From: Candidatus Collierbacteria bacterium RIFOXYD2_FULL_45_13
Lineage (GTDB): Bacteria > Patescibacteriota > Microgenomatia > UBA1400 > MFAQ01
Length of the DNA: 64,000 nt
Assembly: GCA_001774685.1 (NCBI GenBank)
Contig: MFAS01000001.1
Span: 287,557 to 351,556 of the forward strand
Reading direction: 5' to 3'
The position numbers and the translations under genes are program-made. The notes below the pieces were generated by a model. It saw only the letters and a program-made list of their open reading frames with translations, ran no database searches and was not told the DNA's origin. Shown here piece by piece: positions 5,687 to 61,316 of the stretch (position 1 is its first letter; each line of letters starts with the position of its first letter).

Positions 5687-6673
5687 ATGTTTAAGCGATT
5701 TTTCACCGCTTTAACCATACTCGCCGTCTTGTTTTTTGCCTGGTATTTTCAGTCGATTCAGCCTGTTTCCCGCAGTACCGGCCCACTCATTGATTTTGAG
5801 GTTAAACCAGGTGCTGGGGTAGATAGAATCGCCAATGATCTAAGTAGTGCCAGACTAATCCGTTCCCGTGTCGGCTTCAAGATTACCGTTATCCGTTTAG
5901 GCATTGCCAACAAAATTCAGGCAGGTCTCTTCAAGCTTTCACCTTCTATGAGTGCGACAGAACTGGCGGAGGCTCTCACTCATGCATATGCCCGCCAAAT
6001 CCGAGTTACCATTCCCGAAGGTCTCAGAAGCGAGGAAATTAACTTACTTTTTGAAAAAGCTTTTAGTCAAGTTAAAGAGAACATATACAACCCGGCCGAG
6101 TTTACCCGTCAAACCAAGAACTTGGAAGGTTACCTCTTCCCCGACACTTATGATTTTGTCCCCGAAGCCACTGCCTCGGACATAGTCAAACGTCTCACCG
6201 GCCGTTTTAATGACGTTGTTAGTGACTTAAACATTTCCAAAGAAGACCTCCCACGCGCACTCATTCTGGCTTCCCTTCTGGAAAGAGAAGCTTTTTCTGC
6301 CCCCGAAATGCCCTTGGTGTCCGGAGTTATTGTAAAGCGTTTAAACATCGGCATGGCTTTACAGATAGATGCTACGGTTCAATACGCCGTTGGTTCTGCC
6401 CGATGTAAACAAATTGACTGTGACTGGTGGAAGAAAATTCTGACCAAGGACGATCTGAAACTAAGCTCTCCCTACAACACCTATCAGAACCCGGGTCTGC
6501 CCCCAACACCAATTTCCAATCCCGGTAAAGACGCCCTATCTGCCGCGGTCAAACCGGTCATTGGAACCGCATTGTATTACCTTCACGACTCCGATGGCAA
6601 AATTCACTTTGCCGACACCTTACCGCAGCACAATCAAAACATCTGCACCTATCTCAAAAAAGACTGTAGGTAA
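5687..6673 (+). CDS. mltG: endolytic murein transglycosylase MltG/YceG
   Basis: N-terminal TM, hallmark YLFPDTYDF motif, C-terminal YceG-like region. Confidence 0.85.
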   Translation: MFKRFFTALTILAVLFFAWYFQSIQPVSRSTGPLIDFEVKPGAGVDRIANDLSSARLIRSRVGFKITVIRLGIANKIQAGLFKLSPSMSATELAEALTHAYARQIRVTIPEGLRSEEINLLFEKAFSQVKENIYNPAEFTRQTKNLEGYLFPDTYDFVPEATASDIVKRLTGRFNDVVSDLNISKEDLPRALILASLLEREAFSAPEMPLVSGVIVKRLNIGMALQIDATVQYAVGSARCKQIDCDWWKKILTKDDLKLSSPYNTYQNPGLPPTPISNPGKDALSAAVKPVIGTALYYLHDSDGKIHFADTLPQHNQNICTYLKKDCR

Positions 6674-15755: not shown

Positions 15756-15796
15756 TTGGTGATTCCGCCCTTCGCTCTATTAGACTCCCCTTATCG

Positions 15797-15826
15797 ATTG
15801 TGATATAATACCCCATAACGTTTTCG
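15797..15826 (+). promoter_or_regulatory. conserved promoter motif copy 1: TTGTGATATAATACCCCATAACGTTTT (extended -10 plus conserved downstream block)
   Basis: TGATATAAT extended -10 followed by ACCCCATAACGTTTT. Near-identical copies at 16381-16410 and 42083-42104. Confidence 0.5.
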
Positions 15827-16351: not shown

Positions 16352-16375
16352 CCCCTGCTAGCCAGGGGTTTTATT
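16352..16375 (+). terminator. intrinsic terminator (cccctg/cagggg stem + TTTTATT)
   Basis: 6-bp GC stem, 5-nt loop, T-run. Confidence 0.6.
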
Positions 16376-16380
16376 ATGTT

Positions 16381-16410
16381 TTGTGTTACAATACCCCATA
16401 ACGTTTTAAG
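16381..16410 (+). promoter_or_regulatory. conserved promoter motif copy 2: TTGTGTTACAATACCCCATAACGTTTTAAG
   Basis: TGTTACAAT extended -10 plus identical ACCCCATAACGTTTT block. Upstream of the membrane-protein gene, which has an AGGAGG RBS. Confidence 0.5.
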
Positions 16411-42045: not shown

Positions 42046-42082
42046 TACTTCATTATATCCATATGTTTAATTTATGAATCGT

Positions 42083-42104
42083 CCGTGATATAATACCCCA
42101 TAAC
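42083..42104 (+). promoter_or_regulatory. conserved promoter motif copy 3: CCGTGATATAATACCCCATAAC
   Basis: TGATATAAT plus ACCCCATAAC, identical to copy 1 over 19 nt. Followed by AAGGAGG and a TTG start. Confidence 0.5.
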
Positions 42105-42123
42105 CCATTACAAGGAGGTTTTC

Positions 42124-54910: not shown

Positions 54911-54935
54911 AAAGACTGATATCTCCTGTATTTTG

Positions 54936-54995
54936 TCGGGGTACTCAGAATTGAACTGAGATCGCGCGCACCCCATGCGCGCATACTGCCGTTAT
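54936..54995 (-). other. duplicated 3' fragment (60 nt, positions about 12-73) of tRNA-Pro; identical to the intact copy 190 bp away
   Basis: Exact 60/60 match to 55126-55185 including anticodon arm, T-arm and 3' acceptor strand. Lacks the 5' acceptor/D-stem. Confidence 0.55.
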
Positions 54996-55026: not shown

Positions 55027-55097
55027 AATAAGAGGAAGCGCAGGAAGTACTTTTCAATAACTAAGTTATTGAAAGGATGACGAGCAAGCTCTTATAC
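55027..55097 (+). repeat. structured repeat element B copy 1 (closing stem ATAAGAG/CTCTTAT, inner hairpin caataac-taa-gttattg)
   Basis: Shares ATAAGAGGAAGCRCAGG...GACGAGCAAGCTCTTATAC with copy 2. The inner hairpin differs in sequence but keeps its pairing. Confidence 0.5.
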
Positions 55098-55125
55098 TAA
55101 AACCGAGAGTCTTTCGACCATTTAG

Positions 55126-55196
55126 TCGGGGTACTCAGAATTGAACTGAGATCGCGCGCACCCCATGCGCGCATACTGCCGTTATACTATACCCCG
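55126..55196 (-). tRNA. tRNA-Pro (anticodon GGG), 71 nt, no encoded CCA
   Basis: Minus-strand fold: acceptor CGGGGTA/TACCCCG (7/7 WC), D-arm GTAT/GTAT (2 WC + 2 GU) with GG in the loop, anticodon stem CGCGC/GCGCG with loop AUGGGGU (U33, GGG, G37), variable CGAT, T-arm CTCAG-TTCAATT-CTGAG, discriminator A. Confidence 0.6.
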
Positions 55197-55259: not shown

Positions 55260-55329
55260 ATAAGAGGAAGCACAGGCTGCCATTTCGATAATGACTATTA
55301 TCGAAAGAAAGACGAGCAAGCTCTTATAC
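55260..55329 (+). repeat. structured repeat element B copy 2 (same closing stem; inner hairpin tttcgataat-gac-attatcgaaa)
   Basis: Conserved flanks as in copy 1. A 10-bp perfect inner stem replaces the 7-bp stem of copy 1 (compensatory change). Confidence 0.5.
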
Positions 55330-58757: not shown

Positions 58758-59033
58758 ATGACCAAACAAACCCTGGTAAACATTGTTAGCAAGAAGGTCC
58801 ACTTGACCAAAAAAGCCGTCAAAGAAACGGTTGACGCTTTTTTTGAAGAGTCCATCGCCGCACTTGGAAAAGGTGAAAAGGTTGTTATCTCCGGCTTCGG
58901 CACTTTCTATATTGGTAAAGTCGAAGACAAGCAAGTAGTTCCCTTCGGTAACGAGTCCAAGAGGCAAGTAGTCAAAGGACACAAAGTTATCAACTTTCAT
59001 GTTGGTAAGCCTTTGAAGAAAAAAGTTGCCTAA
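58758..59033 (+). CDS. hup: DNA-binding protein HU
   Basis: VISGFGTFYIGKV.. beta-arm motif. 91 aa. Confidence 0.88.
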   Translation: MTKQTLVNIVSKKVHLTKKAVKETVDAFFEESIAALGKGEKVVISGFGTFYIGKVEDKQVVPFGNESKRQVVKGHKVINFHVGKPLKKKVA

Positions 59034-60178
59034 TGCCGTCCGTTTTCATCAATACTTTCGGTTGCCAAGCCAACAAGTCAGACTCCGAGCGTATACTTGG
59101 GGATTATCTTTCACGAGGCTATACTGAAGTTTCAAACTGGAGATCTGCCGATGAAATAGTGATCAATACCTGCTCTGTCCGCCAGTCGGCCGAAGACCGG
59201 GTTACCGGATTTCTTCTCAATGTAGACAAGTTTTTCGCAGGGAAGCAGAGGCCTAAGATTATCTTGACCGGTTGCATGCTCCATTTCAATGAAAAAGAAA
59301 TAAGGACCCTTCTGCCCCAGATCGATGAGATCCTTCCTATTGGTGAAGTCGGTTTCAATCAGAAAGCTATCAGAAAGGAAAAGAACAAGGCTTTTATTCC
59401 CATTTCCTCAGGCTGTAACTCTTTTTGCACTTTTTGTATTGTGCCATTTTCCAGAGGACGGGAACGTTCTCGCCCCATTGATGACATTGTTCGGGAAGTT
59501 GAAGGATTGGCCGGAGAAGGCTATACCGAAATCACCCTATTGGGTCAAAACGTAAACTCTTGGGGCTTGGAAAAAGTCGGCGTGGCCCTCAGGAAGATGT
59601 TTATGGATAAAGATACATTCACCACCGATATTATTCCGTCAAACCAATCTCAGTACTTCAAGCCGCAAGACACCCCACCGTTTGTGACTTTACTTAGGGA
59701 AATCAGCAAAATCGACGGCATCAAAAAAATCAGCTTTTTTACCAGTAACCCCTGGGACTTCTGGGACGAGCTGGTCGACGAGATAGCTGTCAACCTCAAA
59801 ATTGACCGTTTTATTCACCTGCCGGTTCAGTCCGGTAGTAATCGTATATTAAAACTCATGAACAGAGGTTACACCCGTGAGTCATATCTTACTTTGATTA
59901 ATCAAATTAAAGATAAAATCCATGACGTTGTCTTTGGCACTGATATTATAGTGGGCTTTCCGGGAGAGACAGACGAAGATTTTCAAGACACCTTGAATCT
60001 GGTAAAAGAAGTTGGTTTCAAGGTTGCCTTCGTAGCCCGGTACTCACCACGGCCGGGAACCGCCTCCGCAAGACTCTACCCTGATGATATTCCGGCTAAA
60101 ATCAAGAAAGAACGCTGGGAAATTTTGGATCAAATTGCCAACAAAGACAATCTCCGATCCCGACCCATCGTCCCATAG
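59033..60178 (+). CDS. miaB: tRNA methylthiotransferase, MiaB-like radical SAM enzyme
   Basis: N-terminal MTTase Cys (FGCQAN..NTCSVR), radical SAM CNSFCTFC, TRAM-like C-terminus. Confidence 0.8.
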   Translation: MPSVFINTFGCQANKSDSERILGDYLSRGYTEVSNWRSADEIVINTCSVRQSAEDRVTGFLLNVDKFFAGKQRPKIILTGCMLHFNEKEIRTLLPQIDEILPIGEVGFNQKAIRKEKNKAFIPISSGCNSFCTFCIVPFSRGRERSRPIDDIVREVEGLAGEGYTEITLLGQNVNSWGLEKVGVALRKMFMDKDTFTTDIIPSNQSQYFKPQDTPPFVTLLREISKIDGIKKISFFTSNPWDFWDELVDEIAVNLKIDRFIHLPVQSGSNRILKLMNRGYTRESYLTLINQIKDKIHDVVFGTDIIVGFPGETDEDFQDTLNLVKEVGFKVAFVARYSPRPGTASARLYPDDIPAKIKKERWEILDQIANKDNLRSRPIVP

Positions 60179-60185
60179 TTCACCC

Positions 60186-60270
60186 GTCATTACGAATCTC
60201 CTGCCCGCAGATGCTAGAGCATCTGCTCTTGCAGGCGGGCGTACTCGAGCTGTGGCAATCTCACTCCATC
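60186..60270 (+). repeat. repeat element R copy 1 (intergenic, 85 bp): GTCATTACGA...20-bp perfect palindrome...GGCAATCTCACTCCATC
   Basis: Termini shared with copies at 60383-60445 and 60918-60964. Inner palindrome gcagatgct-ag-agcatctgc at 60207-60226. Confidence 0.55.
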
Positions 60271-60293
60271 CATAATATAAAATTACGATACGA

Positions 60294-61316
60294 ATGAATA
60301 ATGTTTTAGTCATCTGCGGTCCCACCACCTCCGGTAAAACCTCCCTAGCTCTCTCCATCGCAAAGCAAATAATCTCGAACCAGTCATTGCGAGGAGCGAA
60401 GCGACGTGGCCCGCTGGTACCCGAAGGGGTAAATCTCACTCCACCAGGATCAGTCAACCTCCTCTCCGCCGACTCCCGACAGATATACAAGGGTCTGGAC
60501 ATTGTTACAGGCAAAGATATTCCTACAGATCTCCCTCCAAACATTTGTTTTTTTGGTTTGGATTTGGTCGAGCCCAACCAAAGCTTTAATCTCGCTGACT
60601 ACTTGGATTATTCCAAAAAAATAATTCAAAGCTCGATAAAAAGCCATACTCCGCTGATTATTGTGGGCGGTACTGGTTTATACCTGAAAGCCATTACTAC
60701 TGATTTGCTGACTGTCAGAGTTCCTCCAAATAGATTACTTCGTCTGGATCTCGAGAAACTTGATTTACCGGCTCTTCAGTCTCGTCTATCAATATTAAAT
60801 CCTCAAAAATTCTCCTCCCTGAATAATTCTGATCTCAATAATCCCAGACGTCTCATCCGCGCCATCGAAATCTCAACCTACGACAATTCACAATCTGCCG
60901 CTTTCTCTTCCTCCAACGTCATTGCGAGTTTCGGTACTCCGAACCGCGGCAATCTCACTCCATCAAACTTTCTTTGGGTTGGCCTTAAAGTCGATAAAGA
61001 AATTCAGAAATCCCGGATCAATCATAGAGTCATTGATAGATTAGAAAACGGAGCGGTGGAAGAAGTAAAAAACTTAATTGCAAAATACCCCGACCTCCAC
61101 TTGCCAATCTACACCAGTCTAGGCGTCAAACAGATTCTTCAATTCCTGCACCAAGAAATCCCTCGAGAAACGCTGGTAGACCTATGGGCGGCTTCCGAAG
61201 TAGATTATGCTCGTCGGCAAACGGTCTGGTTTAAAAAACAACCCGGCATAGTTTGGTATGATAAAAGTACGGTAGACGACCATCTTATCGCTAAGTTAGC
61301 CGAAATATATAAATAA
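60294..61316 (+). CDS. miaA: tRNA dimethylallyltransferase (340 aa) carrying two in-frame insertions derived from repeat element R
   Basis: P-loop GPTTSGKT, SADSRQIY, typical MiaA. Extra segments ..SLRGAKRRGPLVPEGVNLTPPGSV.. and ..VIASFGTPNRGNLTPS.. coincide with repeat copies. Confidence 0.85.
   Translation: MNNVLVICGPTTSGKTSLALSIAKQIISNQSLRGAKRRGPLVPEGVNLTPPGSVNLLSADSRQIYKGLDIVTGKDIPTDLPPNICFFGLDLVEPNQSFNLADYLDYSKKIIQSSIKSHTPLIIVGGTGLYLKAITTDLLTVRVPPNRLLRLDLEKLDLPALQSRLSILNPQKFSSLNNSDLNNPRRLIRAIEISTYDNSQSAAFSSSNVIASFGTPNRGNLTPSNFLWVGLKVDKEIQKSRINHRVIDRLENGAVEEVKNLIAKYPDLHLPIYTSLGVKQILQFLHQEIPRETLVDLWAASEVDYARRQTVWFKKQPGIVWYDKSTVDDHLIAKLAEIYK
60383..60445 (+). repeat. repeat element R copy 2 (63 bp, in-frame inside miaA)
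   Basis: GTCATTGCGAG...GGTAAATCTCACTCCACC. Corresponds to a roughly 20-aa insertion after the MiaA P-loop helix. Confidence 0.55.
60918..60964 (+). repeat. repeat element R copy 3 (47 bp, inside miaA)
   Basis: GTCATTGCGAG-ttcggtactccgaa-ccgcGGCAATCTCACTCCATC. The 17-mer GGCAATCTCACTCCATC is identical to copy 1. Confidence 0.55.

Follow-up and report, generated by a model that had tools for sequence, protein, structure and literature searches.

The window analysed here is a 64-kb stretch of DNA (64,000 nucleotides of contig MFAS01000001.1) from a Collierbacteria genome, which belongs to the Microgenomates of the Candidate Phyla Radiation (CPR). Its miaB–miaA locus carries three copies of a short repeat, R1, R2 and R3, all on the plus strand and with conserved ends in common. 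R1 lies in the spacer between a MiaB-family gene and miaA, which encodes tRNA dimethylallyltransferase, and R2 and R3 are found in frame inside miaA itself. Judged from their sequence and that of their relatives, these are very probably copies of a non-autonomous hairpin repeat of the repetitive extragenic palindrome (REP) type, two of which would occupy permissive loops of MiaA and be translated as part of a protein that still functions. The features of the locus, in window positions and with open reading frames abbreviated as ORFs, are as follows.

59033–60178, plus strand: ORF of 381 aa, MiaB-family radical-SAM methylthiotransferase-like (ORF list)
60185–60270, plus strand: R1, the intergenic copy, with CGTC tag, diverged 5' end GTCATTACGAA, long central hairpin and 3' end GGCAATCTCACTCCATC
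60294–61316, plus strand: miaA (tRNA dimethylallyltransferase), an intact ORF of 340 aa that hosts R2 and R3 (ORF list, PF01715)
60383–60445, plus strand: R2, the in-frame copy at MiaA site 1, encoding SLRGAKRRGPLVPEGVNLTP
60411–60431, plus strand: secondary hairpin of 21 bp, CCGCTGGTACCCGAAGGGGTA, nested in R2 between GTGGC and AATCTCAC
60917–60964, plus strand: R3, the in-frame copy at MiaA site 2, with CGTC tag, encoding VIASFGTPNRGNLTPS

The three copies and their host gene

All three copies had been reported in the initial annotation and were located in the window with their shared ends. The start given for R2 holds, whereas the units of R1 and R3 begin one base earlier, at the C of a CGTC tag (60185–60188 and 60917–60920); the tag of R2 is AGTC. 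The 5' 11-mer GTCATTRCGAR is exact in R1, R2 and R3, and the 3' 17-mer GGCAATCTCACTCCATC is matched by R1 and R3 exactly and by R2 with three mismatches. With up to three mismatches allowed, the 17-mer gives three matches in the window against 0.13 expected, and none of 100 shuffles gave three. The 11-mer alone is not significant in the window (four matches within one mismatch vs 3.6 expected), and the signal comes from both ends paired. No copy beyond R1–R3 was found in the 64 kb, and other hairpins with a GTCAT tag, sought across the window by a generic scan, were matched at chance level.

The copies differ mainly in their middles. The central hairpin of R1, formerly described as a 20-bp perfect palindrome, actually holds an 8-bp inverted repeat, GCAGATGC/GCATCTGC, around a 4-nt loop (8+4+8). 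Comparison with the canonical 36-mer and with two relatives (L126 and L229) resolves R2 into a canonical 36-nt unit plus the nested 21-bp hairpin, and a module related to this hairpin is also present in L121. The miaB–miaA spacer is wholly absent in L229 and L126, indicating a lineage-specific insertion of R1. A scan around R1 found no signal resembling a promoter or terminator. As had been claimed, R2 and R3 are in frame within the intact miaA ORF; both encode (V/G)NLTP, stops are absent, and the predicted protein would include peptides spanning the insert junctions, for example GPLVPEGVNLTPPGSVNLLSADSR and GNLTPSNFLWVGLK.

The host gene has the hallmarks of an ordinary miaA. The IPPT domain (PF01715) is precomputed for the window protein, which contains the GPTTSGKT (P-loop), DSRQIY and GGTGLY motifs, and MiaA activity is predicted. 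Matches of phmmer include 2qgn, 3d3q, 3crm and 2zm5, with five solved MiaA/Mod5 structures in total. The AlphaFold model has a mean confidence score (pLDDT) of 82.7 and is superposed by Foldseek on the E. coli MiaA–tRNA structure (2zm5) with TM 0.72–0.80. The insert-bearing protein is 100% identical on 26 contigs from several samples, indicating a stable allele. Upstream, the stop codon of the MiaB-family ORF falls 7 nt before R1; Pfam UPF0004 and Radical_SAM are found on a gene in L001 identical to this one. The gene order is thus MiaB-family radical-SAM gene, a spacer of 115 bp, miaA and then a permease gene.

The ATTGC repeat family

The family to which these copies belong, called here the ATTGC repeat, has the form YGTC-ATTGC-GAG-(variable stem-loop)-GNR-GCAAT-CTC. 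Most units are 34–38 nt long and read GTC-ATTGC-GAG-(inner stem-loop)-G(A/T/C)(A/G)-GCAAT-CTCAC. They comprise a 5-bp outer stem (ATTGC/GCAAT), a GAG/GNR internal loop carrying G·A-type mismatches, an inner stem of about 5 bp and a loop of 3–5 nt. In Collierbacteria copies the CTC tail is lengthened to CTCACTCCA. The proposal that the middles form hairpins stands on family-wide covariation and not on energy. Among 27 distinct 36-mers, the inner stem shows 21 both-side changes vs 7.6 in shuffles, and its cells are paired in 83% of cases vs 22–52% with slid partners; the folding energy of single copies is unremarkable (z = -1.98 for R1, +0.06 for R2 and -1.55 for R3).

An exact scan for GTCATTGCGAG-N14-44-AATCTCAC, with one genome per species, was used to collect the family. 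Since the ends of the pan-bacterial set were given by this pattern, part of their invariance is built in; R1, R2 and R3 open the stem with A-T, and elsewhere AT.../...AAT were part of the pattern. Independent of it are the GC that precedes AAT and, in bystander copies unselected on the tail, the CTC reading of this tail, seen in six out of seven. Among the matches listed (123 copies), position -1 is a pyrimidine in 89% (T 56%, C 33%), no target motif was seen beyond this pyrimidine, and downstream conservation was also not detected. Target-site duplications were not found in 112 of these 123 copies, the rest having 2-nt matches at chance level. The tag is CGTC in the site-1 copies of L124, L125 and L126. 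In this small sample most copies are singletons, and the few pairs (L012, L031, L058) are arranged tail to tail.

A sister family was observed in L007, L047 and L107 as GTCATTCTGAG-CCGAAGGC-GAAGAATCTCAC. Its units, nested with ATTGC units, have ATTCT/AGAAT in place of ATTGC/GCAAT, a compensatory change of the outer stem. This points to a possible wider superfamily of the same plan.

The ATTGC family is dispersed across bacterial phyla, at unrelated loci. The scan recovered the repeat from most bacterial phyla, with a total of at least 120 genome stretches; Patescibacteria, Bacteroidota, Chloroflexota, Proteobacteria, Planctomycetota, Methylomirabilota, Melainabacteria, Bacillota, Actinomycetota and others are among the matches listed, as are the cultured carriers Lacinutrix venerupis and Ochrovirga pacifica. 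Plasmid copies, unannotated and intergenic, occur in cultured Methylosinus trichosporium OB3b, Methylocystis rosea, Calothrix and Halomonas, and 25 IMG/VR viral contigs carry the repeat. Scarcity of the termini elsewhere, which had been named as grounds for giving up the repeat, is therefore not what was found. Intergenic copies show no strand bias relative to flanking genes (crude gene calls), which argues against a strand-specific RNA role. When 1563 ORFs from the 120 listed loci were compared all-against-all, no recurrent neighbour gene emerged; the families that recur near these loci are merely generic (ABC ATPases, response regulators and glycosyltransferases). Rfam 15 holds no relevant family for the window locus or for eight loci with canonical copies. 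A full-text literature search for GTCATTGCGAG matched unrelated primer lists only, and a search combining CPR with palindromic repeats returned nothing relevant.

Copies inside genes are not restricted to miaA. The R3 subtype was found with blastn-short in the miaA of L124 and at two non-homologous places in L065, one in the metG–tatD spacer and one in frame inside tatD. Other hosts of in-frame copies, all in genomes other than that of the window, are hsdS of cultured Lacinutrix venerupis, a ychF-like gene (L014), argS and a radical-SAM gene, the last two from metagenome-assembled genomes. With the hsdS, argS and radical-SAM cases, the phenomenon extends beyond miaA and CPR. The antisense in-frame copies, those of L065 tatD and the ychF-like gene, are read in the antisense frame ...RND.

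Several further copies were observed around these loci. Two tandem antisense copies lie just upstream of tatD in L065 (Collierbacteria CG_4_9_14_3_um_filter_43_16, 5881–5999). Read as its reverse complement, CTCGCAATGAC, the 5' end of the element includes ATG, and therefore the element can give a downstream gene an apparent start and an N-terminal extension '...LAMT'. In L. venerupis DSM 28755 (L009, 2602–2635) the element is in frame as VIASTQDEAISP, where it lies between both target-recognition halves of an ORF resembling a type I restriction S subunit, and a second copy, HCERSEAIS, is found near the 5' end of the same ORF. In L126 (1471–1515), a Collierbacteria-type copy, CGTCATTGCGAAGCACACAGTGCTGTGGCAATCTCACTCCA with the CTCACTCCA tail, lies about 1.5 kb upstream of miaA, probably in the rny–hup spacer.

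Two loops of MiaA as recurrent sites of the repeat

In Microgenomates, the ATTGC family is found repeatedly in two MiaA loops and in the miaB–miaA spacer. When 33 Microgenomates MiaA proteins were aligned, two places proved hypervariable; many orthologues are insert-free there and others carry a different insert. Both insertion sites are thereby confirmed, together with the earlier suggestion that the inserts fall at loops that are normally short. Site 1 is the loop joining the P-loop helix to strand 2, only 3–4 residues long in MiaAs of the PDB, and site 2 is the linker between the helical insertion domain and a core strand. The two sites, aa 31–50 (mean pLDDT 54–56) and aa 201–220 (mean pLDDT 37–44), are the only low-confidence stretches of the MiaA model, and both are coil.

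Element-derived peptides occupy sites 1 or 2 in 18 of 120 Microgenomates MiaA homologues; a pattern search listed 19, of which P0112 was discounted as a chance match. The orthologue inserts are recognisably the same DNA repeat, the opposite of what had been put forward as a reason to regard the resemblance to R1 as accidental. All three sense frames of the ATTGC unit are represented (VIA...QSH, SLR...NLT and HCE...AIS), along with frames of CGTC-1, a repeat family discussed below. Site 2 of distant lineages contains SLRGAKRRGNLT in P0021/22, HCEERSDVAIS in P0030 and VIPAKAGIH in P0031, and the R3 subtype is present in P0006 at site 1, not site 2. The canonical unit is open in three sense frames and one antisense frame, and no antisense copy in miaA was seen among the 120 homologues. 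That the copies in miaA are all sense and the in-gene copies stop-free is expected only if they are translated, and R2 and R3 are most likely read as extra, presumably disordered loops of MiaA.

Stacked elements were observed at site 1 of one orthologue, P0008 (393 aa; alignment columns ~60–140). Its host segment SVHILSADS recurs as RVTILSADS across the insert, so that the insertion came with a duplication of about nine host codons, or else two copies recombined.

Copies turn over by precise indels. P0007 and P0009 (DNA of L126 and L229) are 87% identical overall, and the flanks of site 1 in these two are identical over 69 bases before and 34 after. One precise 24-bp indel separates their elements, at the internal position that holds the 21-bp piece in the window; no target-site duplication was found at this indel.

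A second Collierbacteria genome, L124, has a miaA that is 72–79% identical to that of the window. R3 is identical at 44 of 45 positions between the two genes, and site 2 of L124 has 19 extra codons that are absent from the window. A textbook CGTC-1 unit, CGTCATTCCCGCGGAGGCGGGAATCCA, with an 8-bp stem and a GGAG loop as in the published stem definition, stands in frame directly upstream of the R3-type copy. The upstream reading frame of L124 contains VILANAGIH, a peptide of the CGTC-1 type, shortly before miaA starts, and a DNA scan of L124 recovered no CGTC-1 unit matching it there. The gene is also a mosaic: nucleotide identity between window and L124 is 71% over aa 52–200 and 92% over aa 224–290, a pattern that suggests recombination between Collierbacteria lineages within miaA. 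The near-identity of R3 was considered as evidence of element-specific constraint and rejected, the adjacent 200 nt of this mosaic gene being 92% identical.

Relation to known repeats and rival explanations

The closest parallel is the CGTC-tagged REP superfamily (Di Nocera, De Gregorio and Rocco, 2013, BMC Genomics 14:522; PMC3733652). Its members are defined by an unpaired CGTC tag (variants TGTC and CCTC), a stem that starts with A-T and a 3-nt tail with the consensus CCA; they occur in several phyla, include intragenic units and have no dedicated transposase (PMC3733652). Published families have a continuous stem of 8–9 bp, a loop of 4–5 nt and units of ~25 nt, among which head-to-head dimers predominate (PMC3733652). 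CGTC-1 corresponds to Neisseria dRS3 and Rickettsia palindromic element (RPE) 6, and CGTC-4 to RPE-4; in-frame CGTC-1 peptides of R. conorii, VIPAKAGI and SFPRKRES, are given in the supplementary list, and RPE-decorated Rickettsia proteins were reported as expressed (PMC3733652). CPR bacteria were outside the sampling of that study (PMC3733652).

The ATTGC element is built like this superfamily, including Neisseria dRS3 and Rickettsia RPE-4/RPE-6. Common to both are the YGTC tag, an A-T stem start as far as the window copies R1, R2 and R3 attest it, a short unpaired tail (here CTC), presence in many phyla, in-frame intragenic copies and, at the 120 listed loci, the lack of an associated transposase gene. 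The peptides VIPAKAGI and SFPRKRES are shared between R. conorii proteins and CPR MiaA orthologues. In contrast, ATTGC units measure 34–60+ nt, R1 and R2 have much longer middles, and copies are mostly singletons with few tail-to-tail pairs. The ATTGC peptides (SLRG, VIAS, HCEE) and miaA are absent from the supplementary lists of PMC3733652, and the ATTGC/GCAAT string is absent from its main text. Because of its longer, bipartite stem, its CTC tail and its unlisted peptides, ATTGC is regarded as a further family on the CGTC-REP plan and as none of the four described.

Other repeats resemble the element less closely. RPEs were reportedly treated by Ogata et al. in 2000 (Science 290:347) and in 2002 (Genome Res 12:808). 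In PMC10969869, RPE-1 is presented as a palindromic repeat that sits in frame in housekeeping genes unrelated to one another, in a bacterium with a small genome; it is compatible with the protein fold and is regarded as translated selfish DNA. RPE-1 spans ~100–150 bp with a conserved peptide of 30–50 aa in one frame, whereas elements of the window type are 45–63 bp long and read in three frames; ATTGC elements also differ in that many lineages carry them at the same two loops of a single enzyme. GTAG REPs and REPINs, associated with RAYT enzymes of the Y1/HUH type, are likewise short tagged hairpins without target-site duplication, occasionally intragenic and sometimes in inverted pairs. The ATTGC tag is instead YGTC, pairs are rare, and no RAYT-like or recurrent gene was found near the 120 listed loci. 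MITEs (miniature transposable elements with inverted repeats; Correia, ERIC, Nezha and others) are small non-autonomous repeats able to fuse in frame with host ORFs, according to PMC10969869. The ATTGC element is well below typical MITE size, its ends are only weakly inverted (GTCATTGC vs GTGAGATTGC) and target-site duplication is lacking. No parental insertion sequence is known for it. Cyanobacterial SDRs, very small dispersed repeats, are reportedly nesting palindromic units of 20–40 nt, occasionally inside genes (Elhai et al. in 2008); they are lineage-restricted and would differ in sequence from the ATTGC element.

The kind of event at the window locus is thus a known one, intragenic insertion of REP/RPE-type repeats, and the remark in the initial annotation that it would be unusual in any case was overstated, as in-frame REP/RPE insertions are documented (PMC3733652, PMC10969869). 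New are the ATTGC family, the CPR host clade and the recurrent pattern of two MiaA loops. The proposal of a REP/MITE-like element that entered a coding region and left the gene intact is supported by the orthologues, the unrelated loci, the indel alleles and the structure model. Copies would spread as DNA, probably through a single-stranded hairpin intermediate handled in trans by an enzyme encoded away from the element. Within genes, the survivors would be those in a structurally permissive loop, in a stop-free orientation and frame and with a net added length divisible by three. Plain transcription and translation would then make R2 and R3 disordered surface loops of a MiaA that still functions, and R1 would be a bystander in the spacer.

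Several points weigh against the reading of R1–R3 as mobile REP-type copies. The 64 kb holds just three copies, all at one locus, and R2 folds no better than shuffled sequence. The stem of ATTGC is bipartite and longer than the 8–9 bp of the CGTC families, and its tail reads CTC, not CCA. No transposase or mobilising enzyme was identified among the ORFs of the 120 listed loci, and the transposition step is purely one that we infer. Translation of the inserts is deduced from their orientation and open frames. Recombination, and not constraint on the element, may lie behind the 98% identity of R3 between window and L124. Finally, the site-1 insert is common to many Collierbacteria in diverged form, and the site-1 inserts may represent one old insertion with later remodelling and not many insertions.

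This last point leads to the strongest rival, in which no transposition takes place; old copies would be altered by recombination, gene conversion or hairpin-driven replication slippage, and the miaA sites would be vertically inherited and remodelled. The NLTP tail common to site-1 inserts of many Collierbacteria, the changes that fall inside existing elements (nested pieces of 24 bp and 21 bp that share one position), the adjacency of different families, the mosaic miaA, and the lack of both a transposase near the 120 listed loci and target-site duplications are all in line with it. It is nevertheless considered unlikely. Site 2 of distant lineages is filled by undegraded canonical copies that differ in family and frame, the R3 subtype is found at loci that are not homologous, and the family is present in most phyla and on plasmids and viral contigs; each of these calls for de novo insertion at some stage. 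Recombination and slippage probably explain the remodelling, but not the non-homologous loci or the cross-phylum spread.

Elements could also have been kept for local use, either as RNA hairpins tuning the stability or translation of the miaB–miaA mRNA or as interaction loops of MiaA. Three copies at one locus with none elsewhere in 64 kb, the filling of the same two loops in many lineages, the NLTP end kept at site 1 of many orthologues and the identity of R3 at 44 of 45 positions in genes only 72–79% identical overall (window vs L124) would fit such a role. However, many orthologues, close ones included, are without inserts or have another family or frame, and therefore no particular peptide or hairpin is required. 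Intergenic copies lack orientation bias relative to genes, promoter-like or terminator-like signals were not found at R1, the inserts are predicted to be disordered, and the R3 identity adjoins the 92%-identical block that resembles recombination. A conserved local function is accordingly rated as improbable.

Removal of the R2 and R3 segments from the mature product, which the initial annotation had held open, found no support and appears very improbable. It might proceed by mini-intron-like removal, by ribosome bypass of the kind known from T4 gene 60 and from mitochondrial 'byp' elements, or by protein excision, and hairpin-forming inserts of 45–63 nt within an essential-type gene do invite the comparison. 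But no stop follows a take-off codon, the in-gene copies are all open with the frame kept, and those in miaA are all sense while antisense copies elsewhere use the ...RND frame, neither of which would be needed if the segments were removed. At 15–21 codons they are also far below intein size and far too short for a group I or II intron, no Rfam match was found, and the related RPE-decorated proteins of Rickettsia are reported as expressed (PMC3733652). The notion that R2 and R3 are ordinary lineage-specific MiaA loops, alike to R1 by chance or low complexity, could appeal to the insignificance of the 5' 11-mer alone in the window and to the length variability of sites 1 and 2 in MiaA generally, but is refuted by the three matches of the 3' 17-mer vs 0.13 expected, by both termini occurring together in at least 120 unrelated genome stretches, by near-identical R3 copies at non-homologous loci and by orthologues that read the same DNA in three frames.

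If R1–R3 are REP-type copies as proposed, translated selfish palindromes in housekeeping proteins are extended from Rickettsia and a few Proteobacteria to the CPR. MiaA then offers a compact natural experiment, in which two loops of one enzyme hold at least two repeat families, three frames and alleles that differ by a 24-bp indel. For annotation, strings such as SLRGAKRRGNLTP, VIA..QSH, HCEERSD.AIS and VIPAKAGIH in CPR and metagenome proteins should be taken as repeat-derived and not as conserved motifs. The wide spread, invariant ends, lack of a linked transposase and cultured carriers (Methylosinus trichosporium OB3b, Lacinutrix venerupis) make the movement of CGTC-type REPs experimentally approachable.

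A broader reading is offered tentatively, as possible but doubtful: ATTGC may be an uncatalogued, essentially pan-bacterial REP family that acts as a loop generator in CPR. About 20 terminal nt, YGTCATTGCGAG...GCAATCTC, are nearly constant across >20 phyla, plasmids and phage contigs, and the inner hairpin covaries freely; constant ends with a free inner hairpin would point to a universal trans-acting machinery. If so, this machinery would be a host enzyme of replication or repair, or else an HUH-type enzyme that is widely shared, and not a co-encoded RAYT. ATTGC and CGTC-1 REPs in CPR would then be a recurrent source of new surface loops, as in MiaA, TatD, YchF and ArgRS, with loop turnover on population time-scales through precise hairpin indels.

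Other repeated sequences were noted elsewhere in the window. A 66-nt stretch is duplicated at 54930–54995 and 55120–55185 (98% identity, 190 bp apart) and covers the 3' part of tRNA-Pro(GGG) at 55125–55196 on the minus strand; ARAGORN calls one tRNA. A second pair of 32 nt lies near this tRNA (55066–55097 and 55298–55329, spacing 232 bp), and the tRNA-Pro repeats look like a local tandem duplication or an att-like remnant. A 34-nt motif with TGTGATATAATACCCCATAACG, an extended -10-like box, occurs three times (15791–15824, 16374–16407 and 42076–42109) and may represent a shared promoter.

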